Positions 6,061 to 54,912 of a stretch of 64,000 nt of DNA are shown piece by piece; within the stretch, counting starts at the first letter, position 1; every line of letters begins with the position of its first letter. The stretch lies in the NCBI GenBank assembly GCA_045596885.1, contig JAZODE010000147.1, positions 465 to 64,464 of the forward strand, given 5' to 3'. This stretch comes from Victivallaceae bacterium. GTDB taxonomy: Bacteria > Verrucomicrobiota > Lentisphaeria > Victivallales > Victivallaceae. Position numbers and translations under genes: made by a program. The notes under the pieces were generated by a model that was given only the letters and a program-made list of their open reading frames with translations, ran no database searches and was not told where the DNA came from.

Positions 6061-6081
6061 AAAAAGGCTCCGGAGAAAAAA

Positions 6082-16414: not shown

Positions 16415-17479
16415 ATGGAAAAATATCAAAAAAAATTTACAGATTGTAACGGCAACGAATGTAAAGTCACCTGGCTGCGGATCAAAGGCAACAGACCGGG
16501 TCCGGTGCTTTCCATCGTCGCCGGACAGCACGGAATGGAACATGTCGGTCCCGGGATCCTGCCGGAATTTGCAGAAGAGATGGCTTCCGGAGATTTCGCA
16601 GGAGAACTGCGGATCTGCGCCAATGCCAACCCCTTTGCGCTCCTCATGGATTACGAATTCTACCCCGAAAAAGAAGATTTGAGCAAGATCAAAGATTACT
16701 ATTACTCCATCTTCCGCCACAACTACTGTCCCTGGGGACTGGGCAGAGACCAAGCCCAGACCCTTTACAACATGAACCGCCTCTGGCAGCGGGAAGGCGA
16801 CCACGGCGTGGCAGGCAGGATCACCGCATGGCTCTGGCAGGAAATGATCGAAGGCAGCCACATCGTCCTTGACCTTCACGGGCATCAGCACCCGGCGCTG
16901 ATCTACTCCGGCGCGGGCACAGACTTTGTTCTTTCCGCCATGCCGGGGATCCCCAAACTTGAAATGGAAAATCCCGATCCTGACAACTGGAGCGCAGGAG
17001 ACCTGACCCATCAGGCATACCTTGCCGGAATGAAATCTCTCTGCTTTGAATTTTCGGTCCAGCACGCCCGGGGCGAATTTGAATTTGAAGAGGGTAAAAA
17101 CTATCTGCGCAATATCATGAAGGGCATCCGTATGCTTGAGGGTGAGATCATCCACGATCACGATGTCTGGAAGGTCCCCTTCGATCCTGCAGAAGACAGA
17201 AAAGGCTTCGTCTACGCCGAACACACCGGGCGCATACGCTTTTTCAAAAAGCAGAACGATGAGGTGCAGAAGGGGGATCTGCTCTTTGTCATCCGCGATG
17301 TGGAAACAGGAGAAGTCCTTCAGGAAGGGCGCGCTCCCCGCTGGGGCATCGTCGGCACTCTTCCCCATATCGTCATAACCAAACCCGGCATGTTCTGCAC
17401 ATACGTCCCCATTCCGGAGCTGCTGCTCAAGGCAGGAACTCCGGCAGCCAAATATGAAGAAAACTGGTGGTTGAAATGA
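16415..17479 (+). CDS. Succinylglutamate desuccinylase/aspartoacylase-family zinc deacylase
   Basis: Motifs VAGQHGMEHVG (HxxE zinc site) and LDLHGH. AstE/AspA-like length. Confidence 0.7.
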   Translation: MEKYQKKFTDCNGNECKVTWLRIKGNRPGPVLSIVAGQHGMEHVGPGILPEFAEEMASGDFAGELRICANANPFALLMDYEFYPEKEDLSKIKDYYYSIFRHNYCPWGLGRDQAQTLYNMNRLWQREGDHGVAGRITAWLWQEMIEGSHIVLDLHGHQHPALIYSGAGTDFVLSAMPGIPKLEMENPDPDNWSAGDLTHQAYLAGMKSLCFEFSVQHARGEFEFEEGKNYLRNIMKGIRMLEGEIIHDHDVWKVPFDPAEDRKGFVYAEHTGRIRFFKKQNDEVQKGDLLFVIRDVETGEVLQEGRAPRWGIVGTLPHIVITKPGMFCTYVPIPELLLKAGTPAAKYEENWWLK

Positions 17480-20400
17480 AAAAATATATTCTTCTTTTAC
17501 TCCTTGCAGCCCTCTCTCTCGGAGCGGCAGAGCTTTTTGTAGGTCCCCAAGCCCAATATAAAACCATTCTTTCCGGCATCAAAGCCATGAAGCCGGGAGA
17601 CACCCTGACCATTCTCCCCGGCGTATACCGTGAATCCATTGAATTTGCCAATCTGGGTTCAAAGGATAAGATCACCACGATCCGGGCAAAATATCCCGGA
17701 ACCGTACTTCTCAAGGGCGACAAAGAAGCTCCGCCTTTCAAACTGCTCCCCGGCACCCGTTTCACCTACGTCACCGACTGGAGCGGCAATGTCAATGCAG
17801 TCAATGAAAAGGACACCTTCAAGATCCTGCTCCCTGCGGCAACGCTCCGGGACCTTGAATTTACCCGCAGCCGTTACTTTTACGATGCAAAGAACAGGAA
17901 ACTTTACATCTCAAGCTCTGACGGCAAAGCGCCTTCTGAACACTTTTACACCATCTCTGTCATCAAAGCCAACGCTCTTTATCTGCAGAAACCTGTCAAT
18001 GTGGTCATTGACGGACTTATGGTCACAGGCTATTATGCCCATGAAAAGCTCAATGGTATGAGCTCCAGTGCCTACGCCATCCGTCTCAACCACCCCATCA
18101 ACAGCACCGTGCGGAACTGCAGTGCCTTCTTCAACGCCAACGGTATCCACATCGGTCACGGCGACGGCGGCACCATCGACCGCTGCACAACTTTTGCCAA
18201 CGGTTCCTACAATCCCTCTTCCGGCGGTGGACTGGTGGTGTGGTGTCCGGCGAAAAATGCGACTATCAAAAACAGTCTTTCCTTCTACAGCGCCAAGCCG
18301 GGCGGTCCCATCGGGATCCGTATTTACGGGGCTGACGCCGTCAACTGCAAAATTGAGAACTGTATCTCTTTCGGCGATGAAGCTACTGCCATCAAAGCCC
18401 GGAACATCAACAGCTGGATCATCAACTCCTACAGCCAGAATGGACTTCACTCCAACAACATCCTCAACTGCGCCGCAGCTTATGTCAATGCTTTCGGCAA
18501 GGAGGACAATCTGCTCAGAGTCGATAAGATCCGCAAGAGCGAACATGATTCCCGTTTCGCCGATCCCGAAAACTACGATTACCGTCCTCAGGAGGGTGCC
18601 GCCGAAAAGACCCGGGGGCTCAAAGAGGACAAAAAACTTTTCTTTGTCTCTCCCTTCGGCAAGGACTCCAACTCCGGTCGTTCCGTCAGAAACGCCTGGC
18701 GGACTCTTAAAAATGTCCCTGCCAACGCCACTGTCTATCTGCTCCCCGGAGCCTATGCGGGTACAGTCATCACCAAATCCGGCATAACTTTGCGTTCCCG
18801 GGGCAACGGGCAGCGTGCCGTATTCACAAGCTCTCTCACGGTCAAAGGCAGCAAAGTCACTTTGCGTGATATCAATTTCATAGGCGGCAAAGTTCTTATT
18901 TCCGGTGCCGACGCCCGTGTTGAAGGCTGCGGATTCGCCGTGCCTCTGCAGATCACCGGCAAACTCCCCACTGTCATCCACAATGCTTTTCTGCAAAAAA
19001 GTGTTCTTCCCCGTGAGACGGTGTTCCACAGCAATCTTACTCCTGACACCAAGCCCCAGCCTCAGTACGTCAATGCTCAAGGCGGGGACTTCACGGTCAA
19101 AAACTTTACCGCCTTTGCGGGACGCGGCTTTGACGGGCTCCCCGTCGGTCCCTACCGTCTGAGCCGTTCTGCCAAACCCACAGCGGTGGTCGGACCTTTT
19201 ATCCGTTCCATGAGTCCCTCTACGGTCAACATCGAATGGTGGACAGACAAGAGCGATGTCAGTTCCGAACTGCGCTGGGGTGCCGATCCCACCTGCGGCA
19301 AGCGTGTGGGCAGTTTCTGGAACGGCGGCAGCTACCACTGTGCCACCCTGACAGGATTGCGCCCCGGGAAAAAGTATTATTTCTATGTGGCTTCACGCAC
19401 CCCTCTGCGCGAGATCCACAGCAATCAGGAGCTTGATCTGCAGGATGAATTCAAGGCCCGTGAACTGGTCAAGACCTCTATTCAGGAGTTCACCCTTCCC
19501 GCCAAAGCCAAACGCAGTGCAGCAGAGTTTTTCGTTTCCGTCAACGGATCCGACAAAAACACAGGCTCCAAAGCCAAACCTTTCCGGACCATCTTCCACG
19601 CTCTTGACCAGGCAGTCGCCGGAGACACGGTGACGATCCTGCCCGGCGTCTACCGTGAGGGAGTCCGTTTCCGTGCTGGGGGCGATAAAAACGCTCCTCT
19701 GACGCTCCGTGCCGCAAAACCGGGGACCGTTGTCATTGACGGATTCCAGAAGATCCCCACAGCCATCACCCTTGAAAATGTCTCCAATGTCGTCATTGAC
19801 GGTCTGACTTTCCGGGAGATCTGCGACACCACCGGTGCCTGTATCAAGATCAACGGCAGCGAAAATATCACCATCAGACGATGTTTTCAGGATGGTCGTT
19901 CTCTGAGCTACACACCCGTCATGGTGGCGGCATACGGCACAAAAGGACTCACCCTTGAAAACTGCGTCATCATCCGCGGATTTTCCGGAGCCACCTTCTA
20001 CCGCTGTTCTGATGTGGTCGTCAGAAACTGCGTCTGGTATGTGAACCAGATACGCCACCTTTACGCCCACAGCCATCCGGAAGAGAAGATCCTGCTTGAG
20101 AACAACATCATTGTGGACAACATCCCCGGCAAACACTCTGAAGCTCTTGTTTCCGTCTACCACATTGAAGCGTTGACCATGAGGAACAACGCCTTCTATC
20201 TGCGGATGCCCCAGCAGTTCCGCGCCATTGTTTCCTACACCCGCAAGGATGGAAATCTGGCACGGCAGAAATGCAATCTTGAAATGTTCCGCAAGGCAGG
20301 GGGCAACATAACAGGAACCATCTTTGCCGATCCCCGGTTCAAATTCCTGCCCAAAGGTCTTCTCATGTTCACAACGCCTCCGGAACTCACTCAGGCAAGC

Positions 20401-20577
20401 ATTACAAGAACTCTCAATTACAACAAAGAAGCTCTTGCTCTCGGTAAACGCTGCAGCGTTGCTGAATTGGGACTTGTCAATGGTAAATACCCCCCGTGGA
20501 AGATCACGGACTTTATCAGCAACAATCCGGAACTCTTGAAAAAGAACATTGGACTTAAACCAGAGGCATTCAAATGA
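17476..20577 (+). CDS. Secreted protein with two right-handed beta-helix regions and a central FN3-like (purple-acid-phosphatase N-terminal type) domain
   Basis: Signal peptide MKKYILLLLLAALSLGAAEL. The ATG at 17476 overlaps the upstream stop (ATGA). Repeated beta-helix-type segments and an FN3-like segment (VNIEWWTD...GLRPGKKYYFYV). Confidence 0.8.
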   Translation: MKKYILLLLLAALSLGAAELFVGPQAQYKTILSGIKAMKPGDTLTILPGVYRESIEFANLGSKDKITTIRAKYPGTVLLKGDKEAPPFKLLPGTRFTYVTDWSGNVNAVNEKDTFKILLPAATLRDLEFTRSRYFYDAKNRKLYISSSDGKAPSEHFYTISVIKANALYLQKPVNVVIDGLMVTGYYAHEKLNGMSSSAYAIRLNHPINSTVRNCSAFFNANGIHIGHGDGGTIDRCTTFANGSYNPSSGGGLVVWCPAKNATIKNSLSFYSAKPGGPIGIRIYGADAVNCKIENCISFGDEATAIKARNINSWIINSYSQNGLHSNNILNCAAAYVNAFGKEDNLLRVDKIRKSEHDSRFADPENYDYRPQEGAAEKTRGLKEDKKLFFVSPFGKDSNSGRSVRNAWRTLKNVPANATVYLLPGAYAGTVITKSGITLRSRGNGQRAVFTSSLTVKGSKVTLRDINFIGGKVLISGADARVEGCGFAVPLQITGKLPTVIHNAFLQKSVLPRETVFHSNLTPDTKPQPQYVNAQGGDFTVKNFTAFAGRGFDGLPVGPYRLSRSAKPTAVVGPFIRSMSPSTVNIEWWTDKSDVSSELRWGADPTCGKRVGSFWNGGSYHCATLTGLRPGKKYYFYVASRTPLREIHSNQELDLQDEFKARELVKTSIQEFTLPAKAKRSAAEFFVSVNGSDKNTGSKAKPFRTIFHALDQAVAGDTVTILPGVYREGVRFRAGGDKNAPLTLRAAKPGTVVIDGFQKIPTAITLENVSNVVIDGLTFREICDTTGACIKINGSENITIRRCFQDGRSLSYTPVMVAAYGTKGLTLENCVIIRGFSGATFYRCSDVVVRNCVWYVNQIRHLYAHSHPEEKILLENNIIVDNIPGKHSEALVSVYHIEALTMRNNAFYLRMPQQFRAIVSYTRKDGNLARQKCNLEMFRKAGGNITGTIFADPRFKFLPKGLLMFTTPPELTQASITRTLNYNKEALALGKRCSVAELGLVNGKYPPWKITDFISNNPELLKKNIGLKPEAFK

Positions 20578-33056: not shown

Positions 33057-33458
33057 TCAGGCCTGAGCCTCGGCAGCAGCTTTCTCTTTACCTGCGACTT
33101 CGCCGCCCTCAACGAGCATGAGAAGACAGGTTTCAGCAGCGTCACCGCGACGCTGTCCCAGTTTGAGGATCCTGGTGTAACCGCCCTGACGGCCGGTGTA
33201 AGCAGGAGCGATCTCATCAAAGAGCTTTTTGACAGCGCCTTCGTCGTGCATACGGGCAGCAGCAAGACGACGGCTGTGAAGAGTACCCTGTTTACCAAGG
33301 GTGATCATACGTTCAGCGAAACGGCGGGCAGCTTTAGCCTTGACCAGAGTGGTCTCAATGCGACCGCTGTAAAAGAGGCTGCTGACCATGTTAGCCAACA
33401 TCGCCCGGCGATGAGCGCTGGAACGACCGAGCTTAAGAGTGTCAACTTTATGACGCAT
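33057..33458 (-). CDS. rplQ: 50S ribosomal protein L17
   Basis: N-terminus [24 protein letters not shown] and segment [15 protein letters not shown]. Confidence 0.97.
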
Positions 33459-33460
33459 AG

Positions 33461-34477
33461 TTACTTATTCTCCTCTGACTCGGCGCGGACACTGGCAGCT
33501 TCGGCATCAAGAGCCGCAACAAGCCTGTCGCTGAGAACCATTCCAAGTTCCAATCCGAGTATTTCAATTTTTTCTTTGATTTCTTCCAATGACTTATGGC
33601 CGAAATTCCGGAATTTGAGCATCCGGCCCTCGGTCTTGGTACACAGTTCGTAGAGCAGCTTGATATTCGCACTGTTAAGACAATTCATCGCACGGACCGA
33701 AAGATCCAGAGATTCAATGTCGCGTGAAAGCAGTTTGAACAAGCGATTCTCTTCATCGCTGAGTTTGACATCCTGAGGAACGACCTGAGTACCCAGGAAG
33801 GGCTGCAGGTGGTCACGGAGGATCCGGGCGGCTTCTTCCAGCGCATTGCGCGGAGAGATGCGACCATCGGTCCAAATTTCAAGAGTCAGACTGTCCATTT
33901 CGGTTTCTTCACCGACACGGGCAGCGCCAACCTGATAGTTGACCCAGGTGACAGGGCTGAAGAGACAATCCACAGGGATCGTTCCGATGGAACGGGCTGC
34001 AGTATTCTTTTCAGCGGGCAAATATCCTTTGCCGGTAATCACCTCAATTTCCGCACGGAAGGGGAACGCCTTGTCAAGGGTACAAATCAACTGATCAGGG
34101 TTCAAGACTTCAACGGTACTGTCGCAAATGATATTGGCTGCCGTCACCGGACCTGCTTTATCCTTGCGGATCTCAAGCAGTTTCGGTCCTTCTGCATGAA
34201 GGTTCAGACGGACATTCTTCAGATTGAGGACAATTTCAGTCACATCTTCGACCACATTTTCAAGTGAGCCGAACTCGTGCTTGACGCCATCAATGCGAAC
34301 TGAGCAGATCGCAGCTCCTTCAAGAGAAGAGAGCAGCACCCGACGCAGCGAATTGCCCAGTGTATGACCGTAGCCTCTCTGAAAAGGCTGCGCCAAAAAC
34401 TTGGCATAAGTATCTGTCATGGTCGCTTCATCGACCACGATAGACTTCGGCATCGGAAATCTGTTTTCACAATTCAT
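33461..34477 (-). CDS. rpoA: DNA-directed RNA polymerase alpha subunit
   Basis: N-terminal domain, plus a C-terminal domain with [16 protein letters not shown]. Confidence 0.97.
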
Positions 34478-34617
34478 TAGGTTATCCTCCCCAGTATTTT
34501 TTTACGGACACGTTTTTCAAATTATCACGCAGCTCCGCGGAGTTGCGTTGTTCGGCGCCCGGAGCTCAACATGCACTCCGGAACACCGCACGGAAGCGAT
34601 TGGATCGTAATCCGTAA

Positions 34618-35064
34618 TCAGACACGCCGACGCTTCGGAGGACGGCAACCGTTGTGCGGCACCGGGGTGATATCTTTGATGACGGTCACTTCGAGTCCGG
34701 CGAGGATCAATCCCCGGACAGCGGATTCACGACCGGCACCGGGTCCTTTGATGCGGACTTCAACTTCCTTCATACCGTAAAGCTGGGCTTTTTTGGCGGC
34801 GTCGCCGGCGATCACCTGAGCAGCATAAGCGGTGCTCTTACGGGAGCCTTTGAAACCATTCTTACCGCCGGTAGACCAGCAAAGCACATTTCCGTGCATA
34901 TCAGTAAAGGTGACTTTGGTGTTATTGAAGGTCGCCAGAACATAGACAATACCATTCTGAATATGGCGACCACTCTTGGCGCGCTGTTTGGGAGCAGCAG
35001 CCTCAGCGGCCTGCTCTGCCGGAGCTTCAACAGCGGCAACATTCTTTTCCAATTCTTCTGCCAT
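34618..35064 (-). CDS. rpsK: 30S ribosomal protein S11 (with about 20-aa Ala/Glu-rich N-terminal extension)
   Basis: Core [12 protein letters not shown]...[11 protein letters not shown]...[13 protein letters not shown]. Confidence 0.97.
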
Positions 35065-35103
35065 AATATAAAATTCCTGAGATTATTAACTGTTACCCAA
35101 AAC

Positions 35104-35508
35104 TTACGCCTTAGCGCTGGCGGCAAGACGACGCTGAGTTTTGTCGCGGATAGCACCGATGGTGACGCGCTTACCTTTACGGGTACGGGCATTGGTTTTG
35201 GTGCGCTGTCCGCGGCAGGGAAGTTTCCGGCGATGACGGATTCCGCGGTAGCAGTTGATCTGCTGCAGACGACGGATGTCAGCATCAACAGCACGGCGAA
35301 GGTCACCCTCCACCATGATATCATCCTGCAGGATCTTGGTGATTTTGGCAATCTGCTCAGGGGTGAGTTCGCTTGCCTTGATATTGCGGTCGATACCGAC
35401 CTTCTCAATGATTTCCAGCGCCTTGGTGGGGCCGATCCCGTACAGATAACGCAGAGAATACTCAACGCGCTTGTTGCCGGGGATATCCACTCCGATAATA
35501 CGTGGCAT
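35104..35508 (-). CDS. rpsM: 30S ribosomal protein S13
   Basis: N-terminus MPRIIGVDIPGNKRVEYSLRYLYGIG and segment CYRGIRHRRKLPCRGQRTKTNART. Confidence 0.97.
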   Translation of the reverse strand: MPRIIGVDIPGNKRVEYSLRYLYGIGPTKALEIIEKVGIDRNIKASELTPEQIAKITKILQDDIMVEGDLRRAVDADIRRLQQINCYRGIRHRRKLPCRGQRTKTNARTRKGKRVTIGAIRDKTQRRLAASAKA

Positions 35509-35571
35509 TTTTGGATTCCTGTTTTTTAATGTTATTAACGTTTGAAAATACTTGACACTTTACCAGATGAA

Positions 35572-35688
35572 TTAACCCTGGCGCTGCTTGTGGCGCGGAT
35601 CGCGCGAGCAGATGATACGGATCACTCCGTTTCTTTTGATGACCTGGCAGAACTGACATCTGCGCTTAATCGACGCTCTGACTTTCAT
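35572..35688 (-). CDS. rpmJ: 50S ribosomal protein L36
   Basis: Not in the ORF track because it is shorter than 60 aa. Manual translation gives [38 protein letters not shown] (38 aa) immediately upstream of rpsM. Confidence 0.9.
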
Positions 35689-35899
35689 GTTCTTTTCACC
35701 CTTTTCATAAAATTGCAAAGCACGCCGCAGTTCCCCCTTCCCCCTACCCCGACAGCTTTTTAAGACTGCCGTGCTACACGGACAGGTGGCAAGTTCGTTT
35801 ACCGCGCCGTTCTCTACGCTTCATTACTTGATCCTCGGGTGATGCGGTGCGGTGGAATGGAATTCACCGCAAAACCTTCCGGAATCCTGATTGTCATAT

Positions 35900-35928
35900 A
35901 AAATACAACCAAACTTTGATTTTTTCAA
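35900..35928 (-). promoter_or_regulatory. Putative promoter of the rpmJ-rpsM-rpsK-rpoA-rplQ operon
   Basis: Minus strand TTGAAA, 17 nt, TATTTT. This implies a 5' leader of about 200 nt. Confidence 0.45.
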
Positions 35929-36010
35929 GCCTTTTTTGATTTTTTTTCAAAATTTTCCCTTTTTTCTTTCTCCGAAAGCCTTTTTTTTCTCCAATAACAC
36001 TTTTTGCAGC

Positions 36011-36039
36011 TTGACAAAAACAGGAGTCTGCTGTATATT
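36011..36039 (+). promoter_or_regulatory. Putative promoter of the first prepilin-like gene
   Basis: TTGACA (36011-36016), 17 nt, TATATT (36034-36039). Confidence 0.6.
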
Positions 36040-36095
36040 TCCTATGAGCCAATATTTAATATAATTCATTTAAAAAAGAAAAACAAGTCAACACT

Positions 36096-36941
36096 ATGAA
36101 ATCTCTTTCCTCTTTTCGTCGTTTCAATCAGTTTACTCTCATTGAGTTATTGGTGAAAAGATCACATCTCTGCTGTGATCGTGTTTATGGCAAAGAAGAA
36201 TGTCTTTCACCTGCCCATGGGCAGGTGAAGCTGTACAGCTTCACCTTAATAGAGCTTCTTGTAGTAATCGCCATCATTGCAATACTTGCTGCCATGCTGC
36301 TGCCCGCGCTGCAGCAGGCAAGGGACCGGGCAATGTCAACAACCTGTCTTAACAACCTGAAAGAGTTGAACTCCGCAGTATTCCACTACGCTGACGACAA
36401 CAAAGGTTTTGCTCCCACAGGAAAATATACCTCAAATTACATTTTCAGCGATATCCGTAACTTTGGCACTATCGCCTATTATGTGGGAGTCAGAGTCACT
36501 GACCACTCAGCCCTCATGCCAAAACTGGCGATTTGTCCTAAGGGGCGCAGAGACTTCAAAGCTCCTCCCAATGCTGAAAGAACCACCTCCAACACACCCA
36601 ATTTCAGCTATGCCATGAATTACTTCACCAGCACAGCAACAGGGCAATATTTCCAAAAGTTCGGAACCGGAGGCCACTTGAGTACCCGTTTGAGCTGGGG
36701 AGAGATCGGCGATTTCCGTTGTCTGGGGCTTGAGCCACCTTCATCGCTGACAGGAGGAGGCGGTATCAGCGGTCTGCACTGTATCTCATATCGCCACCCT
36801 CTGTACAAAACTACCAATGTGGCTTTTGCAGATGGTCACGCAGGAACCATCCAAACCGGATTTCTTCACCGCTACATCAGCGGATGGAACGGCAGTTACG
36901 ATTACACCTTCTTTTTCAGAGACAATTATTCTGCTAATTAA
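36096..36941 (+). CDS. Prepilin-type N-terminal cleavage/methylation domain protein, H-X9-DG (DUF1559-like) family, with duplicated FTLIELLV motif
   Basis: [28 protein letters not shown] signature and C-terminal RH...VAFADGH. A second, truncated FTLIELLV lies 36 codons upstream in frame. Confidence 0.85.
36160..36180 (+). repeat. Inverted repeat (7-bp stem) in the spacer of prepilin-like gene 1
   Basis: Stem gatcaca / tgtgatc with loop tctctgc. Confidence 0.7.
36207..36246 (+). repeat. Two overlapping perfect palindromes (22 nt and 24 nt) sharing the arm aggtga
   Basis: Palindrome 1 is tcacctgccca|tgggcaggtga (36207-36228). Palindrome 2 is aggtgaagctgt|acagcttcacct (36223-36246). Because they share an arm, their hairpins are mutually exclusive. 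Confidence 0.85.
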
Positions 36942-36952
36942 ACCTCTTCAAT

Positions 36953-37000
36953 TTCGCCGCTTTGTATGACCGATCAAATGCGGCGAAAATATTTTTTTTA
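36953..37000 (+). terminator. Rho-independent terminator after prepilin-like gene 1
   Basis: Stem ttcgccgc / gcggcgaa followed by a run of 8 Ts (aatatttttttt). Confidence 0.7.
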
Positions 37001-37041
37001 CTTGAAAAACTGGAAAGCTCACAAAAGATAAGGAGGTTCTT

Positions 37042-37980
37042 ATGTTTACGAAAAAAAGCCTTCCCACTGACAACATTTCCGGCAATTATTACAGACCATT
37101 GAAACAAACGACCTTTACCTTGATCGAATTATTGGTTACTACTGCACAACAGAACTGTCTTTTTAAAACAAAAAACAACACATCCTTACGCCCGGCAGGG
37201 CGCACTTCACGTTTGCCGCAGGCAAACTCTTCACACCTTCACATCTTCACTCGATCAGCGTTCACGCTGATCGAACTATTGGTTGTAATTGCCATCATCG
37301 CTATCCTTGCCGCCATGCTGCTGCCCGCTCTGCAGCAGGCACGGGAACGCGCCCGCACCTCCAAATGTTCTGCCAATCTGCTGCAGTTCGGGACTGCCGT
37401 CAATATGTATGCCGATGATTACAATGACTGCGTTCCGGGAGTCCGTACCAGCAACTCAAGCTACACAGGTCCCGAAGACTCCCCATGGGCAACCTCTATG
37501 GACCTTATTCCGGGCAAAGAATACGGAACTCTTGCACCTTATCTGGGGGCAGTGGGCGAGAAACAGCACATCGGCGCTATGACACCTCAACTGCGTTCCC
37601 GTTTTGCCTGTCCCTCTGAAAACAACAATGCCTGGTTCTGTTATTCTTATGTTTACAACGCCTGGTTCTGGATCCATGGCTCAACTCCAGCCCAGCTTGC
37701 CTCCCGCAAACGGTCACGCTTCACCAAACCGGCAAGAAAAATGCTCATCATGGACTGCTACCAAAATACCAATACGCCTTATATAAATTATTCTCACGGT
37801 GCAAAGATCCCCTACCGCCACAACAATACCAACGGCGTTCTTTTTGCTGACGGACATGTTAAATTTCTGCACAAAGGTCAAATCAGCCACAATACTGCGG
37901 GGTATCCCGGCTACCACCCCGATCCTACCGGATTGGTATTCTGGACGCCTGAAGGGAAAAAAGATTTCTATCTCTACTGA
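37042..37980 (+). CDS. Prepilin-type N-terminal cleavage/methylation domain protein, H-X9-DG (DUF1559-like) family, with duplicated FTLIELLV motif
   Basis: Strong AAGGAGG SD 5 nt upstream of the ATG at 37042. The first FTLIELLV is at codon 25. The full signature [28 protein letters not shown] starts at codon 74. C-terminal [13 protein letters not shown] is an exact H-X9-DG. Confidence 0.88.
37251..37274 (+). repeat. Perfect 10-bp inverted repeat across the second cleavage-site codons of gene 2
   Basis: Stem tcgatcagcg / cgctgatcga with loop ttca, covering codons (T)RSAFTLIE. Smaller hairpins lie at 37189-37202 and 37212-37226. Confidence 0.85.
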
Positions 37981-38030
37981 GACAAATTTTCCGAAAACAC
38001 ACGGTCCATAAATAATAAGGAAGACAACAA

Positions 38031-40493
38031 ATGAAAAAACTTCTATTCTTTTCTGCGCTGTTAGCAGCAACTCTGCTTTCAGCCATGCCGGTCGTCCGAA
38101 ACGGCAAATCCGACTATGTCATTGTCATTGCTCCCAATGCTCCTCAAGAGGCTGTCCGGGCAGCGGCAAATGATCTGCGGACCTACATTTTCAAGGCAAC
38201 AGGAGCAAAGCTCCCCATTGTGAAGCCTGCCCAAAAGGGCAAGCGGCCTGCCTTCATGCTGGGATTCATCAAAGTTGACAAGCCGGAAGGATTCGTGGTC
38301 AAAACACAGGGAAAAGATATCCACATTTCCGGAAATGACACAAACGGCAATGTCTACAATAACCACTGGGCAAGCGGTGCCCGGGTGGGCACCTGGTTCG
38401 GCGTGGCGGACTTTCTGGAAAAACAGCTGGGTATACGCTGGTTCATGCCGGGGGACTTGGGCGAATATGTCCCCAAACGCACCAACTGGGATGTCCCGGC
38501 TCTCGATTACGCCGATGCCCCCCGTTTTGAAAGCCGCCGTCTGGGCTACCAGACCCGCAAAGGCATGTCTCCCAAACAAGTGCGCGAAGCCCAGCTTTTC
38601 ATGCGCCGCAACCGTGTGGGACAGGCAAACTCCTGGTGCGCCTGGCACAGCTGGCTCCACTACCTCAAAAAAGAGGATTATTTTGACAAACATCCTGAAT
38701 ATTTCGCCTATGTGGGTGGACGCCGTCTTGCCACCGATTCTCTCGGGCACGGACTCCAGATCTGTACCACCAATCCCGAGGCGCTGGATCAGCTGGCTGA
38801 AAATATGATGAAGGACCTTGCCAAACGCAAACAGCGTTCCATGATGCCTCTTTCCCCCAATGACGGCGGTAAACTTTGTGAATGCGCCAACTGTCTGGCA
38901 CTTGATGACGGAGTCCGTCCCGACGGCAGCCGTATCATGACCACCCGCATGATGACCTACGCCAATGAAATGGCAAAACGGATCGTCAAAAAGTTTCCCG
39001 ACCAGACCTTCGGCATGTATGCCTACTCCTTCTACAAAGAGGGTGTCAGCAAAGTCAAGGTCCATCCCAATATCACCATTATGGAGGTCCTCAACGACAG
39101 CGGTCTGAGTTACTATAACCCCGGCACCCGGAAAGCACATCTGAAAAACCTCAAAGCATGGCGCAGCGTTCTGAATAAACTTTATTACTACGCGACTCCC
39201 GAAGGCATGGGCAATCTGGAACTCCCCTGCGGACAGTTCAAAAACATCAGCATGCTTTTTGACAACCTTTACGCCGCCGATGTGACCGGTATCGATATGA
39301 ACAACACCACCAGCTACACCGCTTCCGCCCTGAACAACTACTTTTTTCTCAAATATTCCTGGGGCAATATCAAGGATAGAGAAAAGTTCTACGCTGAGAC
39401 GCTCCGTGACTGCTACGGTAAGATTGCCGCCCCCGTTATGAGAGGTTACTTTGATGCTATTGAAAAGCGTTTCACTGAATACGCCTCAGGCGGATTGACA
39501 GAAAATATCAGTTTGGGATACATCCCCCGCTATCCCGGAGTCCTGACCAAAGTTTACCCCGGACTGGCTGAAGAGTGGCTCCCCAAATTGAAGGCTGTTC
39601 TTGCAAAAACCACCGACAAAGGACAGAAAGCGCGGCTGCAGCTTGCCATTACCAATCTGGAGTACTGCCAGGTAACTGTTCAGCTTTACGCCATTGCCGC
39701 CAAACTTGTCACCAGCCCGCGTCCTGATGCAAAACTTGCGGCGAAAGCTCTGAAACTGACTCAGCTCCGTAAAGCTCTTCTCAGCAAGACCCGCTCTTTC
39801 CCCGGCAACTCCCCTGCCAACACAGCCAGAACTGAACGCACCTTCCGCATTCCCTTTGATGCCAATGTGTTCTCCTTTATGATGGCTGCCAACGCCCGCA
39901 AGAGTGCAGCGACCACCCGTATTGCGGAGCTCCCCAAGTTGGATGGTAAACTGGATGAAGCTCTCTGGAAAAAGATCAAACCTCTGCGTATCGAACTTGA
40001 CAAAGACACTGCCGATCCCCACAAAGTCGGAGCCAATGTTTACCTTGCCCGTCACAACGGCGACCTTTATCTGGGTATCCATTGTGAAGAACCTCTGATG
40101 AACAAAAATCAGGATTCCGGTCTCCGTAAGGACAGCCCTGTTTGGGATGAAAACAGTATCGATCTTTTCTTTTCCACTCCTGACAAAAAATGTTTCCAGC
40201 TGGTCTTCAACTCTCTGGGAACTGCCAGAAGTTTCAGCAAAGAAGGCAAAAAGAATCTCCCCTGGGATGCCAAAGCGGTTGTTAAAACCTTCCGCGGGAA
40301 AAATTTCTGGAGCGCTGAGATCAAGCTGCCTCTGAATTCCATGTACAAAGGTAAAGAATTCATCGGCGACATCTGGGGGATGAACTTCTGCCGCCACAGA
40401 TGTACCGTTCACCCTGACGAATACACCTGCTGGAGTCCTACTTTCGGCGATTTCCACCGTCCTGAGCGTTTCGGCAGGATCATCATAAAGTAA
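38031..40493 (+). CDS. Secreted DUF4838-family protein with C-terminal carbohydrate-binding (CBM9-like) region
   Basis: Signal peptide MKKLLFFSALLAATLLSA, a DUF4838-like N-terminus (RNGKSDYVIVIAPNAP) and a CECANCLALDD cysteine motif. Confidence 0.8.
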   Translation: MKKLLFFSALLAATLLSAMPVVRNGKSDYVIVIAPNAPQEAVRAAANDLRTYIFKATGAKLPIVKPAQKGKRPAFMLGFIKVDKPEGFVVKTQGKDIHISGNDTNGNVYNNHWASGARVGTWFGVADFLEKQLGIRWFMPGDLGEYVPKRTNWDVPALDYADAPRFESRRLGYQTRKGMSPKQVREAQLFMRRNRVGQANSWCAWHSWLHYLKKEDYFDKHPEYFAYVGGRRLATDSLGHGLQICTTNPEALDQLAENMMKDLAKRKQRSMMPLSPNDGGKLCECANCLALDDGVRPDGSRIMTTRMMTYANEMAKRIVKKFPDQTFGMYAYSFYKEGVSKVKVHPNITIMEVLNDSGLSYYNPGTRKAHLKNLKAWRSVLNKLYYYATPEGMGNLELPCGQFKNISMLFDNLYAADVTGIDMNNTTSYTASALNNYFFLKYSWGNIKDREKFYAETLRDCYGKIAAPVMRGYFDAIEKRFTEYASGGLTENISLGYIPRYPGVLTKVYPGLAEEWLPKLKAVLAKTTDKGQKARLQLAITNLEYCQVTVQLYAIAAKLVTSPRPDAKLAAKALKLTQLRKALLSKTRSFPGNSPANTARTERTFRIPFDANVFSFMMAANARKSAATTRIAELPKLDGKLDEALWKKIKPLRIELDKDTADPHKVGANVYLARHNGDLYLGIHCEEPLMNKNQDSGLRKDSPVWDENSIDLFFSTPDKKCFQLVFNSLGTARSFSKEGKKNLPWDAKAVVKTFRGKNFWSAEIKLPLNSMYKGKEFIGDIWGMNFCRHRCTVHPDEYTCWSPTFGDFHRPERFGRIIIK

Positions 40494-47730: not shown

Positions 47731-48630
47731 TCATCGTCTGGGATGCAGACGCCTTGAAACTGCCAGGGCACCGTTGGGGTCCACATGGGTGTAAACCTCA
47801 GTTGTAGAAATATCGCTGTGACCGAGCATTTCCTGAATACAACGCAAATCGGCTCCATGTGAAAGCAGATGGGTCGCAAAACTGTGCCGGAGCGTATGGG
47901 GATGGACTCCGCCATTGATGCCGGCTCTGACAGCCGCCTCCTGAACGATGCTCCATACCCATTCACGGTTGAGCTTTTTACCGTTTTTGGAAAGCAGCAG
48001 CCAGGGGGCTTTGGGATTTTTTTCCGCCAGCACCGGGCGCGCCACTGTCAGATAGCGGCGCATGACCCGGAAAGCGGGCTTTCCACAGGGAACCACTCTT
48101 GTTTTACTCCCTTTTCCTGTCACCCGGAGCAGACCGCCGTCGATGTCGCACTCTGCTACCTTGAGAGAGGTCAATTCAGATGCCCGCAGACCTGATCCGT
48201 AGAGCAGTTCGATCATCAACCGGTTTCTCATTTCCAATTCTCCTTCTGTGGTACTGAAGGCTCCAATCAATTTGTCCACATCAGACTCAGAGAGAAAATC
48301 CGGCAGAATCTTCCACCGCCTGGGAGAATCCATGACAGCTGTAAAATCTCTTTCGATGCGCCCCTCATCAGCCAGATAGCTGAAAAGGAGCCTCAAGGAA
48401 ATAAGTCTTCGCGCAACTGTTGAACTTTTCAGAGGATGTTCTTTACAGTATTGCAAATAATCCAGAAGGTCATCCATGTTGAGAACAAGCCAGGAACTTT
48501 TACCGGAGTCAGTAAAAAAATCTGCTGCATCCTTCAAATCAGAGGCGTAAGCCGACACAGAGTTGCCGCTCAGCCCCCGTTCTATGGTCAAATACCCCGT
48601 TAGTAAAGTGATATCCCGGTCAAACCCCAT
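47731..48630 (-). CDS. xerD: Tyrosine recombinase XerD/XerC
   Basis: Catalytic pattern RASEL..., HTLRHSFATHLL and LGHSDISTTEVYTHV. Confidence 0.9.
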   Translation of the reverse strand: MGFDRDITLLTGYLTIERGLSGNSVSAYASDLKDAADFFTDSGKSSWLVLNMDDLLDYLQYCKEHPLKSSTVARRLISLRLLFSYLADEGRIERDFTAVMDSPRRWKILPDFLSESDVDKLIGAFSTTEGELEMRNRLMIELLYGSGLRASELTSLKVAECDIDGGLLRVTGKGSKTRVVPCGKPAFRVMRRYLTVARPVLAEKNPKAPWLLLSKNGKKLNREWVWSIVQEAAVRAGINGGVHPHTLRHSFATHLLSHGADLRCIQEMLGHSDISTTEVYTHVDPNGALAVSRRLHPRR

Positions 48631-52602: not shown

Positions 52603-54912
52603 ATGAAACAGTTGATCGACAACCAATGGCAGTTCCGGAAAGATGACGGCAGTTTTTCCGATTTTGACAAACTCCCTGTACGCACCCTTGATGTGCCCCA
52701 TGACTGGTGCATAGAAGAGGGGGCGTTTGCCAAAGAAAATTATATTCCGAGTGTCCGCGAAGAGGGGCATCTTGAATTCCGTCACGACTCCTTTCTGCCC
52801 AGAGGATGCGGTATGTACAGAAAACATCTTGAGATACCTCAACTCTTTGAAAACCAGAAGGTTTTTGTTGAATTTGAAGGTGTTTTCGGTGAAAGCACTT
52901 TCTATGTTGACGGCATAAAAGCCGGGGAAAACATTTCCGGTTACACGGGGGCGGTCTATGATATCACCCCTTTTGTTTCAGGCAAAAAAGAAACGACTCT
53001 GGAACTCCACGTCTCTGCCGAAAGGATGCAGGGGTGGTGGTATGAGGGCGGCGGCATCTACCGTCATGTCCGGCTGATCGTCAAGCCTGCTGCGCACCTG
53101 GTTCCCTGGGGAACAGCGGTCACGGCTTCTGAGATCACCGCTGCTTCAGCCGGGATAAAGGTAAAAACGGAGATCGCCGGCGTCACTTCTGAAACCATTC
53201 TCAGTCTTGAGATCTTCACTCCGGAGGGGAAAATTGCGGCAAAGGCGGAACAATTCCTTGCCAAAGCAGAGTTCGCGATTTCTGAATTTGATCTGACGGT
53301 GGATTCGCCTCAGCTCTGGGATATTGATTCCCCCTGCAGATACCGGGCTGAGCTTTCTCTCAGGAGTACTTCGGGTGTTGACAGCGAAAGTGTCAACTTC
53401 GGGATCCGTTACTTTGAATTCACCCCTGACAGAGGATTTTTCCTTAACGGCAGACATCTGCAGCTGCGGGGCGGCAATATCCACCACGATTTCGGCGGTC
53501 TGGGCACAGCACTGCCCGATCGTGCTCACGAAAAAAATGTGGAGGTGCTCAAAGAAATGGGTGCCAACATGATCCGTTCCTCGCACAATCCTGCCGCCCC
53601 CGCTCTTATGGAAGCGTGCGACAAACTGGGAATGCTTCTCTGGGCAGAGACCCGGAACCTGCATCCGGAAAAAGGTGCTGAAAAAGACCTGACTGCTCTG
53701 ATCCGCCGTGACCGCAACCATCCTTCCATTATCCTCTGGTCCCTTGCCAACACGGCGGGGGGACAGAATGGGAACCCCGATCTGACACGCAAACTGAAAG
53801 TACTTCATGACCTCGCCCAAAAACTTGATCCCTCCCGTCCGACAGCGGTTGGTCTTGAGGCCAATGCCGATGCCAACGCCAACGGTTTTGCTGATACTGT
53901 GGATGTGGTGGGTTACAACGGCGGCGGCATGGGGGGCAAGGATGAACGGGACCACCTCACTTATCCCGGACGCTGTGAAGTTGTCAGCGAATATGCTTCA
54001 GGCAGAGGCGCCCGCGGGATCTATTGCGAAGAGGAGTTCGGCGAAAGCGGTATCTTTGAAATACTGGGGGATGGACGCAAAGTTGCCCGGAACGGAAAAT
54101 ATTGCTCAGAGCTTGCCCTGCTCCAAGTCCACGCAAGAGAATGGGAACATGTTATGAAGAATCCCTATCTTGCCGGGGGATTGATGTGGTCCGCTATTGA
54201 GTACCGCGGCGAAACCTGCGGCTACCCGGTCGTAACCAGCCAGTTCGGAGTGTTGGATCTCTGCCGTTTTCCCAAGGACACCTTCTACTACTACCAGATG
54301 CAATGGACCGACAAAGATGTACTCCACATCTTCCCCCCATGGAACAGAAATGTTCCGCCGGGAACAATGGTGGAGCTTTACTGCTGTTCCAACTGCGATA
54401 CCGTCACTCTTGAGCTCAACGGAAGGATCATCAAAGAGGAGGAAAAACTTGAAAAAAACAAGTATGCGGTCTGGAAAATCCCCTACGAACCCGGCACTCT
54501 TACCGCCATCGGTAAAAAGAATGGCAAGGTGATCTGCCGCAAAAACCTTGTCACCCCCGGAGCCCCCGCAAAATTGAAGATCACTCCTGACCGTGCGTCT
54601 CTGCAAACCGGAGATATCTCGTTCCTGCGGATCGATGTCACAGATGCCGAAGGCAACTTTGTCCCCGATGCTGCAGTAGATCTGGAAATCTGCGTATCCG
54701 GGGGCACACTTGCGGGAGTCTGCTCAGGCGATCCTGCCAGTCACGAAAGGGAAAACACTCCTTTTATCCGTACTTTCAGCGGATCCGCCCTTGCCATCAT
54801 CAAAAGCAGCGCCGCCCCCGGGAAAATCACGGTAACGGTCAAAGGCAAAGAGTTGCAGAGCGCAGAATGCGTCTTTTGGTCAGCCATTCCCCCGACTGGA
54901 ACTCAAAGGTAA
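52603..54912 (+). CDS. Glycoside hydrolase family 2 (beta-galactosidase/beta-glucuronidase-like)
   Basis: GH2 sugar-binding, Ig-like and TIM-barrel layout, with NMIRSSHNP and WSLANT motifs. No signal peptide. Confidence 0.9.
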   Translation: MKQLIDNQWQFRKDDGSFSDFDKLPVRTLDVPHDWCIEEGAFAKENYIPSVREEGHLEFRHDSFLPRGCGMYRKHLEIPQLFENQKVFVEFEGVFGESTFYVDGIKAGENISGYTGAVYDITPFVSGKKETTLELHVSAERMQGWWYEGGGIYRHVRLIVKPAAHLVPWGTAVTASEITAASAGIKVKTEIAGVTSETILSLEIFTPEGKIAAKAEQFLAKAEFAISEFDLTVDSPQLWDIDSPCRYRAELSLRSTSGVDSESVNFGIRYFEFTPDRGFFLNGRHLQLRGGNIHHDFGGLGTALPDRAHEKNVEVLKEMGANMIRSSHNPAAPALMEACDKLGMLLWAETRNLHPEKGAEKDLTALIRRDRNHPSIILWSLANTAGGQNGNPDLTRKLKVLHDLAQKLDPSRPTAVGLEANADANANGFADTVDVVGYNGGGMGGKDERDHLTYPGRCEVVSEYASGRGARGIYCEEEFGESGIFEILGDGRKVARNGKYCSELALLQVHAREWEHVMKNPYLAGGLMWSAIEYRGETCGYPVVTSQFGVLDLCRFPKDTFYYYQMQWTDKDVLHIFPPWNRNVPPGTMVELYCCSNCDTVTLELNGRIIKEEEKLEKNKYAVWKIPYEPGTLTAIGKKNGKVICRKNLVTPGAPAKLKITPDRASLQTGDISFLRIDVTDAEGNFVPDAAVDLEICVSGGTLAGVCSGDPASHERENTPFIRTFSGSALAIIKSSAAPGKITVTVKGKELQSAECVFWSAIPPTGTQR

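Follow-up and report, generated by a model that had tools for sequence, protein, structure and literature searches.

Repeat elements inserted in frame within bacterial genes are rare, and the Rickettsia palindromic elements (RPEs) are the textbook case. RPEs are short (~100-150 bp), multi-copy, hairpin-forming and non-autonomous, and the modules that we describe here resemble them in each of these properties. The modules lie in genes for prepilin-like proteins. Classical type IV prepilins and the pseudopilins of type II secretion systems (T2SS) have F at +1 and E at +5, followed by a hydrophobic helix of ~20 residues, and their leaders are 5-30 aa long; Gly at -1 is nearly invariant in classical prepilins. 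The proteins described here share F+1, E+5 and the helix, but differ from the classical ones in lacking Gly at -1 and in having leaders that, counted from the ATG, reach 48 aa (gene 1) and 73 aa (gene 2), with 13-24 aa in orthologs free of an insert.

Both genes lie in a 64,000-nt stretch of contig JAZODE010000147.1 from a Victivallaceae bacterium, to which we refer as the window (Table 1). The original prediction, made from the window alone, was that gene 1 encodes the peptide FTLIELLV twice in frame, and the sequence confirms copies at 36132-36155 and 36240-36263 that differ at 10 of 24 nt, every difference being synonymous. As predicted, only the second copy runs into the hydrophobic helix: the Pfam N_methyl profile (PF07963, 24.2 bits, cutoff 21.2) and TIGR02532 (21.5 bits, cutoff 16.3) match copy 2 alone, at residues 49-69. 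The match of gene 1 to the DUF1559 profile PF07596 (13.4 bits) is below the cutoff of 23.3. E+5 is present in both copies, and the -1 residue is Q in copy 1 and S in copy 2. An argument had been built on these -1 residues; it is moot, since paralogs of the clade with plain leaders, like genes 1 and 2, have no Gly at -1. Both motif copies of gene 1, as well as its first ATG, are located 3' of the promoter. A search of JGI metagenomes for strain-level alleles of gene 1 gave zero matches.

The doubling is recurrent rather than isolated, since the only other prepilin-like gene of the window, gene 2, also has two motif copies, beginning at 37114 and 37261 and separated by a 41-aa spacer unlike that of gene 1. 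Here too the second copy, at residues 71-94, is the one matched by PF07963 (32.0 bits) and TIGR02532 (30.2 bits); the first copies of genes 1 and 2 match neither profile. Gene 2 scores 41.2 bits against PF07596 (cutoff 23.3) and 17.2 bits against TIGR04294, below the cutoff of 19, and its motif copies are preceded by T or A at -1. The placement of the inserted module, which we assign to a second family, B, is ambiguous by 8 nt, because TATTGGTT is present at both junctions. The length of this duplication is not fixed among B-type inserts, being 8 nt in the window, 14 nt in L043/L094 and 2-3 nt elsewhere, and by inspection the B-unit ends are unrelated to each other, with no terminal inverted repeats. 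The B spacer contains no in-frame ATG or GTG. A palindrome spans the B-type junction, and a compensated variant of it, TCAATC...GATTGA, occurs elsewhere; a scan with this palindrome returned mostly unrelated environmental prepilin genes with plain ...RSA/FTLIE leaders. Altogether, spacers of families B, C, D and E occupy the same insertion site as family A, are mosaic, and occur in stacks up to three deep.

Table 1. Positions in the window of the two prepilin-like genes, their inserted modules and associated sequence elements. Pairwise divergence is given for codon positions 1/2/3.
Feature	Positions	Strand	Basis or remark
Sigma-70-like promoter TTGACA-17-TATATT, 5' of gene 1	36011..36039	+	11/12 matches; conserved in close strain L105
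Gene 1, prepilin-like protein, 281 aa, doubled N-terminal motif	36096..36941	+	ORF, profile matches, orthologs P0193-P0196
Original host leader of gene 1, 12 aa	36096..36131	+	leaders gene-specific, pairwise divergence ~0.72
Upstream FTLIELLV of gene 1, host's own codons 1-8, relic within extended leader	36132..36155	+	divergence 0.14/0.03/0.49 across 48 genes; 8/53 altered
Family-A insertion unit, 108 nt (36 codons)	36156..36263	+	>90% conserved at all codon positions, sharp edges
Hairpin H1, GATCACA-N7-TGTGATC	36160..36180	+	short sub-family only, not conserved in long variants
Hairpin H2, TCACCTGCC-CATG-GGCAGGTGA	36207..36228	+	covariation
Hairpin H3, AGGTGAAGCTGT-ACAGCTTCACCT	36223..36246	+	spans spacer/motif junction, codons V44-T50; AGGTGA common to H2
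In-frame GTG in arm shared by H2 and H3	36225..36227	+	sole in-frame start-type codon of spacer
Host codons 9-24, completing hydrophobic helix with unit-borne motif	36264..36311	+	N_methyl match at residues 49-69; divergence 0.27/0.20/0.60
Shine-Dalgarno sequence AAGGAGG ahead of gene 2 ATG (37042)	37030..37036	+	sequence
Gene 2, prepilin-like DUF1559 protein, 312 aa, doubled motif	37042..37980	+	profile matches; L105 uses same start
Upstream (host) FTLIELLV of gene 2	37114..37137	+	24/24 nt identical to single copy in empty L105 allele
Family-B module, 147 nt (49 codons): 123-nt spacer and own motif (37261-37284)	37138..37284	+	
B-type junction palindrome TCGATCAGCG-TTCA-CGCTGATCGA	37251..37274	+	codons -3 to -1 pair with +2 to +5 of module-borne motif

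The insert in gene 1 belongs to a dispersed unit, family A, that consists of an 84-nt spacer (36156-36239) followed by its own FTLIELLV copy (36240-36263); the last base of the unit, 36263, is host-derived, and on both sides the breakpoint follows the GT of codon V8. A 22-nt palindrome was identified in Lentisphaeria/Victivallales MAGs, in at least 95 genomic stretches; among the matches listed, FTLIELLV follows it in 96 of 97 occurrences. Loci were picked by the exact H3 palindrome, so that copy counts are lower bounds and the conservation of H3 is partly ascertained. One MAG has at least 21 unit copies, 20 of which are short family-A units that each lie in a different gene and are 82-100% identical to the consensus (18 of them at 93% or more). 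In the matches listed, the A unit always follows the GT of codon V8, in dozens of otherwise unrelated prepilin-like genes from gut Lentisphaeria. Its edges are apparent from the pairwise divergence at codon positions 1/2/3, which is 0.71/0.74/0.74 in the leader, 0.074/0.056/0.079 in the spacer and 0.005/0/0.20 in the downstream motif; values for the upstream motif and for the 16 codons after the downstream motif are given in Table 1. A purine follows the upstream GT in 50 of 51 copies, and C or T follows the downstream GT in 39 of 51 (Fisher p = 4e-16).

These patterns tell the two motif copies apart. Saturated synonymous sites and a relaxed peptide constraint mark the upstream copy as the host's own, and fixed codons mark the downstream copy as the unit's. 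The expectation that both copies are constrained as peptides is therefore correct for the downstream copy (0 of 53 altered) but not for the upstream copy (changed or lost in 8 of 53), whose decay takes the forms E5K, L to P and complete loss; decayed upstream forms have new start codons within spacer remnants. The original prediction also held that the doubling is not a fresh target-site duplication, and we agree, since the unit-specific fixed codons of the downstream copy rule out a 24-bp target-site duplication. Nor is there a general shorter duplication for the A type: only the invariant GT is common, in 50 of 71 copies. Terminal inverted repeats of the A unit were sought by eye, and AAAAGATC... 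matches the reverse complement ACAAGAAG at only 6 of 8 positions. No longer, autonomous version of the A unit was found; all 60 A-type 5' ends are paired with an A-type 3' end at the canonical or a slightly deleted distance. Divergence of A units within genomes (median 3.7%) is only slightly below that between genomes (5.6%), and with so small a gap, nucleotide-level constraint or homogenisation may contribute. Within the spacer, TTCACCT recurs in the order direct-inverted-direct. We also considered that the spacer might be built from inverted or frame-shifted copies of N-terminal coding DNA.

Comparison of related alleles indicates that modules are gained or lost. Strain L105 shares ~98-99% identity with the window, and its gene 2 differs by the absence of precisely the 147-nt B module; the indel is clean, with no flanking tract. 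Precise deletion between direct repeats would equally give the L105 empty allele. A difference of one module likewise distinguishes L053 from L073, and L003 from L055; the 48 nt after the insert in L053/L073 carry 11 extra synonymous differences, with a similar local excess in L003/L055, and the L053/L073 tract looks as if it was copied from a paralog rather than left by a clean cut-and-paste event. For gene 1, orthologs P0194 and P0195 have a single motif, a short leader and no insert, and a further set of proteins forms a series from no module (P0200) through a C module (P0197-P0199) to C plus A (P0201). DNA comparison with the distant empty orthologs L103 and L104 is uninformative because synonymous sites are saturated. 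Among the readings first offered for the doubled motif, a family-specific inserted element is the one borne out by these data, with a dispersed 108-nt unit, sharp boundaries, and presence/absence both in orthologs and in a near-identical strain.

The 3' part of the A spacer has the layout described in the original prediction, namely tcacct (36207-12), gcccatgggc, aggtga (36223-28), agctgtacagct and tcacct (36241-46), such that the central aggtga is common to two overlapping hairpins, H2 and H3. In H2, 96.3% of alignment cells are paired and seven of ten pairs are changed on both sides, a level reached in none of 500 shuffles. H3 is 99.2% paired, with double changes in four of ten pairs, and its variants are also found in copies that were not picked by the probe. 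Predicted folds are more stable than shuffled sequences (z = -3.2 and -4.8). By contrast with H2 and H3, the third hairpin, H1, often has an uncompensated variant, GATCCCA. A scan of positions 35500-38200 against Rfam 15 at permissive E-values gave only chance matches, none near a gathering score. The suggestion of an RNA switch embedded in coding sequence is thus upheld as far as structure is concerned, in that both overlapping hairpins covary, but not as to function, and H2 and H3 may just as well serve the element as a signal at the DNA level.

Spacers are strongly constrained in frame. They are in frame in 89 of 90 cases, and of their 16 length classes, which range from 57 to 294 nt, 15 are divisible by 3. 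Stop codons are absent from the motif frame in 70 of 71 unique spacers, whereas the other two frames are free of stops in 7 and 2 of them; 88 of 90 spacers are both in frame and stop-free. Because this constraint is specific to the motif frame, we infer that the spacer is read through in translation, which would give an extended leader. The idea of a long leader carrying a decoy motif is therefore half right: translation of the extension is implied, but the upstream motif decays, as expected of a relic rather than of a maintained decoy.

We propose that the doubled motif was probably left by an insertion module that is small, dispersed and non-autonomous, the original gene remaining intact with a longer leader. 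The 108-nt A unit would insert at the GT of codon V8 within the host's N-terminal FTLIELLV, and the unit's 3' copy of codons 1-8 would join host codons 9 onwards, rebuilding an intact signal/anchor segment. The original start, leader and first eight codons would be pushed upstream and still be translated in frame, so that the product would have a 48-aa N-terminal extension in place of its 12-aa leader. This extension, on the N-terminal side of the helix, would be lost to a prepilin-type peptidase or else persist as a cytoplasmic tail; we would expect it to be removed or to be harmless, and cleavage by the peptidase is assumed. Because the insert is N-terminal of the helix, insertion would be tolerated, the relic could decay, and modules could stack after any motif copy. 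The overlapping hairpins beside the unit-borne motif would be conserved parts of the module. Spread would occur by a site-specific event at the GT.

Some of these observations could also be accommodated without dedicated mobility, if the insert had only one or a few origins and is passed on by ectopic homologous recombination, gene conversion or template switching. The conserved FTLIELLV and a 19-residue stretch downstream would then serve as flanking homology among hundreds of paralogous N-termini, and modules would be hitch-hiking indel alleles in a family under concerted evolution. This would account for the 11 differences in the 48 nt beyond the insert in the filled allele of L053/L073 and for the similar excess in L003/L055, and it fits with the C module often travelling with its own conserved leader (18 residues), with spacers that are mosaic between 5' and 3' parts, with motif copies only 1 nt apart in L090, with the 8-14 nt of identity at the B-type junction, and with the lack of a mobilising enzyme found within or adjoining the modules. 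Nonetheless, we regard it as somewhat doubtful, since the edges of the A unit are sharp to ~1 nt on both sides in 51 copies, where conversion tracts should end variably; the left homology is just 24 nt at ~75-85% identity, a poor substrate for homologous recombination; and the window/L105 indel has no flanking tract. The modules might instead be kept for use, with H2/H3 as a cis-regulatory mRNA element that tunes single prepilin-like genes through stability, processing, pausing or a bistable switch, and the doubled motif as a by-product of cassette acquisition. Covariation in both hairpins, the stability of the folds relative to shuffles and several G.U cells on the sense strand of the H2/H3 alignments would all be expected of a functional RNA; moreover, old, strongly diverged copies (e.g. 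in MAG JAZTWG) retain intact stems despite divergence in the loops and in the 5' half of the spacer, and at the junction of B modules there is another, analogous hairpin, of which a compensated variant exists. We nevertheless consider such a role unlikely: there is no Rfam match, C and D modules have no junction hairpin, about half of unselected paralogs have short, plain leaders, and most alignment rows were ascertained on H3. Palindromes can in any case stay perfect through template-switch correction with no need for selection, and hairpins would be no less expected in a mobile element, as structures for its recognition.

Readings in which the spacer is not translated fare worse. The in-frame GTG at 36225 is present as described, and initiation there would give a classical short leader (MKLYS/FTLIELLVV), making the upstream part an untranslated, accidental in-frame extension; a frameshift inside the spacer of the near-identical allele P0021 and a stop codon within the spacer of L036 could be explained in this way. 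However, alternative initiation at this codon is not supported: the constraint on frame and stops applies to the motif frame specifically, sub-families GQGKAR, GQGKAC and VGAKPAG have no GTG, and the B spacer has no in-frame ATG or GTG. In addition, the GTG lacks a Shine-Dalgarno sequence and is buried in both stems, new ATG starts in decayed copies arise 5' of the hairpins, and the promoter of gene 1 and the Shine-Dalgarno sequence and ATG of gene 2 lie 5' of the first copy. We therefore consider a start at GTG 36225 very unlikely. Programmed ribosomal bypass or recoding between the identical motifs, as in T4 gene 60 or the mitochondrial byp elements, is suggested by the presence of identical peptide motifs on either side of a stable hairpin, but is hardly conceivable here. 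Neither bypass nor downstream initiation would require a gap that is in frame and stop-free, as it is in 88 of 90 cases, and ordinary translation is enough; the codons of the two copies differ, so that there is no matched take-off and landing codon; and spacers of 57-294 nt are far more variable in length than known bypass gaps.

No transposase or recombinase lies within or next to the modules, and none could be tied to them; a Xer-like gene in the window has no demonstrated link to them. In these bacteria, the same prepilin N-terminal DNA serves as the att site of an integrative and conjugative element (ICE) that has a tyrosine integrase. Found through its recurrent terminus ...VVIAIITILPVQNF, this ICE was rejected as an autonomous parent of the modules, since its junction lies 15 nt downstream and its ends are unrelated to theirs. 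L031, a candidate for a long B-type element, proved to be only a degraded gene remnant.

It is possible, and we offer this tentatively, that the modules are a new class of selfish coding-sequence parasite: hairpin-bearing, mobilised in trans by a site-specific recombinase at the V8 GT, and with their translated sequence discarded along with the leader by prepilin peptidase. By restoring the prepilin cleavage site, each would escape selection. If so, they would represent a third route, beside inteins and self-splicing IStrons, by which an insertion is erased from the mature protein, and the turnover of 5' ends, including leaders, hairpins and possibly promoters, would diversify expression across hundreds of prepilin-like genes in glycan-degrading Lentisphaeria. 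The mobilising activity would be an undescribed one, possibly a recombinase that recognises the hairpins and a GT crossover. The modules would in addition explain the odd, long, Cys/His-rich N-termini of many Lentisphaeria "prepilin-type" proteins in databases, and why many such entries are partial at contig ends. Since they are located in a part of the protein that is cleaved or cytoplasmic, they provide a natural experiment on the tolerance of coding insertions. Together with the ICE, they suggest that the conserved N-terminal DNA of a massively expanded family is a multi-copy landing site for mobile DNA.

We found no prior description of such modules in the literature on the motif, on Lentisphaerae prepilin repeats or on DUF1559. 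Several known systems share some of their properties. MITEs and the Correia, ERIC, BOX and REP/BIME repeats are likewise small, dispersed, without coding capacity, potentially structured and sometimes intragenic; the A-type modules differ from them in having neither terminal inverted repeats nor a target-site duplication beyond GT, and the modules differ in their absolute target and orientation specificity and in their reading-frame constraint. Integron attC cassettes, IS200/IS605 PATEs and REP-RAYT systems also have imperfect hairpins near one end that are kept by complementarity, make no or minimal target duplications and can form cassette-like tandem stacks. The modules are embedded in an open reading frame that constrains them, and no IntI/attI, R-box or HUH transposase was identified with them, such that the likeness is one of analogy only. 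Integrative elements that target tRNA or tmRNA genes carry the target end with them, leaving a functional gene and a displaced native fragment as a direct repeat; similarly, in the modules the upstream copy corresponds to that of the empty site and the downstream copy is element-borne and restores the gene. Unlike those elements, the modules are only 108-234 nt long, have no integrase and regenerate the 5' rather than the 3' end of the gene, and the ICE of these bacteria, with its junction further downstream, shows no visible gene restoration. Inteins and IStrons are comparable in concept, since the insertion is neutralised by removal after transcription or translation, but removal of the modules would fall to the host leader peptidase and not to the element.

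The closest analogue, by shared properties rather than by sequence comparison, would be the RPEs of a different phylum. As with RPEs, we find a multi-copy repeat without mobility genes of its own that forms hairpins and is inserted in frame within coding genes. RPEs, however, occur in many unrelated genes, at varied positions and in the folded body of the protein, whereas the modules are confined to one protein family and one codon (the GT of V8), lie in the leader or tail, supply a copy of the target motif with which the N-terminus is rebuilt, and stack in tandem. They would thus be a second, independent and more rule-bound case of in-frame repeats after RPEs, restricted to one family, one codon and one orientation.

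Inspection of the sequence bore out the gene 1 ORF and both of its FTLIELLV motif copies (prepilin N-terminal codons 1-8) as originally predicted; the copies differ at 10 of 24 nt, every difference being synonymous, and the Pfam N_methyl and TIGR02532 profiles match only the second. The X-aa'-X'-bb'-X arrangement proposed for the spacer between the copies is present at 36207-36246, with GTG 36225 in frame. The only other prepilin-like gene in the window, gene 2, likewise has a doubled motif (37114 and 37261), around a 41-aa spacer unrelated to that of gene 1; hence, the pattern is recurrent even locally. Between the two genes (36955-36999) lies a GC-rich hairpin (GCCGC...GCGGC) followed by a T-run, which looks like an intrinsic terminator and was not flagged by a consensus scan.

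Collecting paralogs, as had been suggested, revealed that the doubled motif recurs across Lentisphaeria. Many Lentisphaeria proteins matched the N-terminal 79 residues in a protein search, with a common spacer and differing leaders and bodies, together with longer or shorter spacer variants and other spacer families; the majority of matches are partial and at contig ends. The 22-nt perfect palindrome GGTGAAGCTGTACAGCTTCACC is found in at least 95 stretches from Lentisphaeria, Victivallaceae and Victivallales MAGs, and one of its orientations encodes a common 13-residue peptide in 96 of 97 occurrences among the matches listed. MAG RGIG3841 has at least 21 copies. These totals are lower bounds, with loci chosen by the exact palindrome of hairpin H3; MAG assemblies also break at these repeats. 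Contigs often break off at the palindrome or motif, or double back through it (proteins P0009 and P0020 are fold-back chimeras, and many matches are partial). Inverted repeats have probably misled the assembly here, which would account for the "partial" label on most database proteins carrying the doubled motif. In contigs that are not Lentisphaeria-like, too, prepilin motifs can be doubled, around unrelated spacers (locus L107 ~1000-1076; proteins P0035 and P0043).

Coordinates of features in the window and in compared loci (L-numbers)
Feature	Location	Strand	Remarks
Gene 1	36096-36941	+	prepilin-like
Gene 1 motif copies	36132-36155; 36240-36263	+	FTLIELLV
Family-A unit (gene 1)	36156-36263	+	108 nt, 36 codons
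Hairpin H1	36160-36180		gene 1 spacer
Hairpin H2	36207-36228		gene 1 spacer; overlaps H3
Hairpin H3	36223-36246		gene 1 spacer/motif junction; overlaps H2
Gene 2	37042-37980	+	prepilin-like, DUF1559
Family-B module (gene 2)	37138-37284		147 nt; absent in L105 (~3940)
rpoA-rpsK-rpsM ribosomal cluster	33057-35508	-	
XerC/D-type tyrosine recombinase	47731-48630	-	PF00589, 160.6 bits
Glycan-degrading context genes	38031-40493; 60726-63641; 52603-54912; 14311-16179; 17476-20577		
ICE-like element loci	L096 6151-7668; L006 4131-4317; L097-L101 ~5560-7503; L102 ~5586-7536		

Divergence was compared pairwise, per codon position, among 48 short copies of family A, the insertion module family of gene 1, aligned without gaps. 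The upstream motif copy is the host gene's own, since its divergence is coding-like with saturated synonymous sites. The spacer and downstream motif copy form a single DNA unit; their evolution shows no codon-position bias, evidence against selection acting on the peptide that the spacer encodes, and the downstream copy has the fixed codons TTCACCTTAATAGAGCTTCTTGT. The edges of the unit are sharp: a purine follows the upstream GT of codon V8 in 50 of 51 copies, and a host-like C or T follows the downstream GT in 39 of 51 (Fisher p = 4e-16), such that the unit comprises 108 nt with GT at both junctions. It is not a 24-bp target duplication, which agrees with the original argument against a fresh target-site duplication. 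No terminal inverted repeats of the family-A unit were found. Within 742 kb of loci, each of the 60 A-type 5' ends leads into an A-type 3' end, either at the canonical spacing or with small in-frame deletions, and no long, possibly autonomous A version was found in these loci. At L011 (2690-3185), an A unit without its first base or two is fused into another module (…KEKGGAGE joined to RSHLCCDR…), with no preceding motif copy, which points to nested insertion outside the canonical site or else to an internal deletion.

Pairwise divergence by codon position among family-A copies
Segment	Position 1	Position 2	Position 3
Leader	0.71	0.74	0.74
Upstream motif copy	0.14	0.03	0.49
Spacer	0.074	0.056	0.079
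Downstream motif copy	0.005	0	0.20
Next 16 codons	0.27	0.20	0.60

The loci and window together contain 121 motif chains (42 single, 68 double and 11 triple). Spacers are mosaics of 5' parts (xTSHLCC, TTAQQNC, SKTCQIC, VTSQHC and DTFIS) and four types of 3' part, two of which end ...SLPSPAP and ...FSPFPKNA. Family-B modules, as in gene 2, bring along their own motif start; TTCACGCTGATCGAAC does not vary and makes up the 3' arm of an 11-bp palindrome that it forms with the codons preceding the motif start. Several environmental contigs also have the exact B-type junction palindrome, there encoding ...RSA followed by FTLIE in genes with plain leaders. B-type 3' parts (window 37195-37265 and the B copies) contain four to five direct TTCAC repeats (cTTCACaccTTCACatcTTCACtcgatcagcgTTCAC), TTCAC being also the first 5 nt of the motif. 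In A-type 3' parts, TTCACCT recurs as a direct, an inverted and again a direct copy. Such repeats could bind a protein, or be remnants of a local duplication of the motif start from which they arose.

Modules vary in presence between close relatives. The strongest case of turnover is the syntenic strain L105 (rpoA-rpsK-rpsM-gene 1-gene 2; ~98-99% identical over the aligned 1.5 kb), which carries the same A unit in gene 1 and lacks exactly 147 nt (49 codons) of gene 2. Its single motif copy matches the upstream copy of gene 2 in the window at 24/24 nt, TATTGGTT is present at both junctions, and the indel is clean, with no conversion tract in the flanks; the difference reflects either an insertion or a precise deletion. 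Two further ortholog pairs, L053/L073 (97.5% identical) and L003/L055 (92%), each differ by one module, with excess synonymous differences in the ~45 nt 3' of the insert. Among gene 1 orthologs, P0193 (96% identical) has the A unit, and P0194 (77%) and P0195 (79%) lack it, their leaders being 13 and 20 aa long. A related ortholog group has states with no module, with a family-C module, and with C+A. About half of 25 prepilin-like genes not selected by the probe have plain M-K/R-rich leaders of 4-12 aa. The dispersed 108-nt unit, its sharp edges, and its presence or absence in orthologs and L105 strongly favour the original suggestion of a family-specific inserted element.

We consider site-specific insertion at the GT, with the N-terminus rebuilt, to be the most likely mechanism. 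A non-autonomous module would insert at the GT of codon V8, carrying codons 1-8 along; the hydrophobic N-terminus would be rebuilt after insertion, and the old start, leader and motif would become an in-frame N-terminal extension. This extension may be tolerated because it lies ahead of the membrane helix, in a cleaved or cytoplasmic part, and its removal would be harmless; cleavage by the peptidase is an assumption, since the clade as a whole lacks Gly at -1. A serine recombinase would be compatible with a two-base crossover. No mobilising enzyme for the modules was found. The window encodes an XerC/D-type tyrosine recombinase with a SAM-like N-terminal domain; this is probably a housekeeping gene, and no link between it and the modules was shown. 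The main rival explanation is that gene conversion at ectopic sites, or template switching, carries modules from paralog to paralog, as the flank differences in L053/L073 and the mosaicism of spacers would suggest; however, the sharp unit edges and the clean window/L105 indel argue against it.

In a motif search that did not require frame, 89 of 90 spacers are in frame and 88 of 90 are stop-free, 15 of 16 spacer length classes (57-294 nt) are multiples of 3, and 70 of 71 unique spacers are stop-free in the motif frame, versus 7/71 and 2/71 in the other frames. This pattern bears the mark of selection for translating the spacer from the start that lies upstream of it, suggesting that ribosomes read through it. 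A near-consensus promoter (36011-36039) lies 5' of ATG 36096 of gene 1, a strong Shine-Dalgarno sequence, AAGGAGG, precedes ATG 37042 of gene 2, and the empty gene 2 allele of L105 has an identical start. Initiation at GTG 36225, which had been proposed, is not supported: sub-families have GQGKAR, GQGKAC or VGAKPAG at this position, the B spacer lacks an in-frame ATG or GTG, and decayed copies gain ATG starts 5' of the hairpins. Ribosomal bypass between the copies is unnecessary, since the gaps are in frame and stop-free. Upstream copies in A units have amino acid changes (E5K, L to P) or are lost in 8/53 cases, versus 0/53 downstream copies changed, and older diverged copies have FSLTELPV, ITLIELWV or similar upstream, or nothing, with the frame retained. 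The upstream motif thus appears to be a relic, and its decay leaves the idea of a maintained decoy unsupported. Some copies are broken: P0021, a near-identical gene 1 allele, has a 1-nt frameshift in the H2 loop, the L036 spacer has a stop, the L071 spacer is 112 nt, and at L031 only a remnant of a gene, lacking the body, is left. Pseudogenes or sequencing errors may account for these cases.

The predicted pair of mutually exclusive hairpins is real and evolutionarily maintained, as indicated by covariation, compensated stems and fold stability. Across 59 distinct A-type 3' parts aligned without gaps, H2 is paired in 96.3% of cells, with both-side changes in 7/10 pairs, a level reached in 0/500 shuffles. 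H3 is 99.2% paired, with double changes in 4/10 pairs, most rows having been selected on H3 sequence; unselected variants keep H3 with other stems (GCAG/CTGC, ACCG/CGGT, GCCT/AGGC and GGTAAAG/CTTTACC). The B junction palindrome has a compensated variant, TCAATC...GATTGA. Compared with shuffles, the folds have greater stability (z = -3.2 and -4.8). H1 is not conserved. The pair could act as a recognition structure of the element or in the mRNA; alternatively, template-switch correction could keep the palindromes perfect without selection.

The prepilin-like genes lie directly downstream of the ribosomal cluster, in a glycan-degrading setting (two DUF4838 proteins, a GH2 enzyme, an acetyl-xylan-esterase-like protein and a chondroitinase-B-like beta-helix protein). 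N-terminal prepilin DNA is also a multi-copy att site, 15 nt downstream of the module breakpoint, for an ICE-like element encoding a ~500-aa tyrosine integrase, an HTH_17 excisionase-like gene and a TraG/TrwB coupling protein. Its junction, ...GCGATCATC abutting ACTACTCTATAG, is identical at five different loci; the element sits at a quasi-palindromic GATCATC core and can point the same way as the gene or against it. The gene that it interrupts at L096 and L006 already carries a family-A unit, and P0006 looks like an ortholog of window gene 1 interrupted likewise.

We found no description of these modules in the searchable literature. Their closest analogue appears to be the Rickettsia palindromic elements, palindromic repeats that lie in frame within ORFs (PMC10969869). 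Unlike those elements, the modules have absolute site specificity, supply their own target copy, stack, and are located in the leader. In regenerating their target, they would resemble the integrative elements of tRNA genes.
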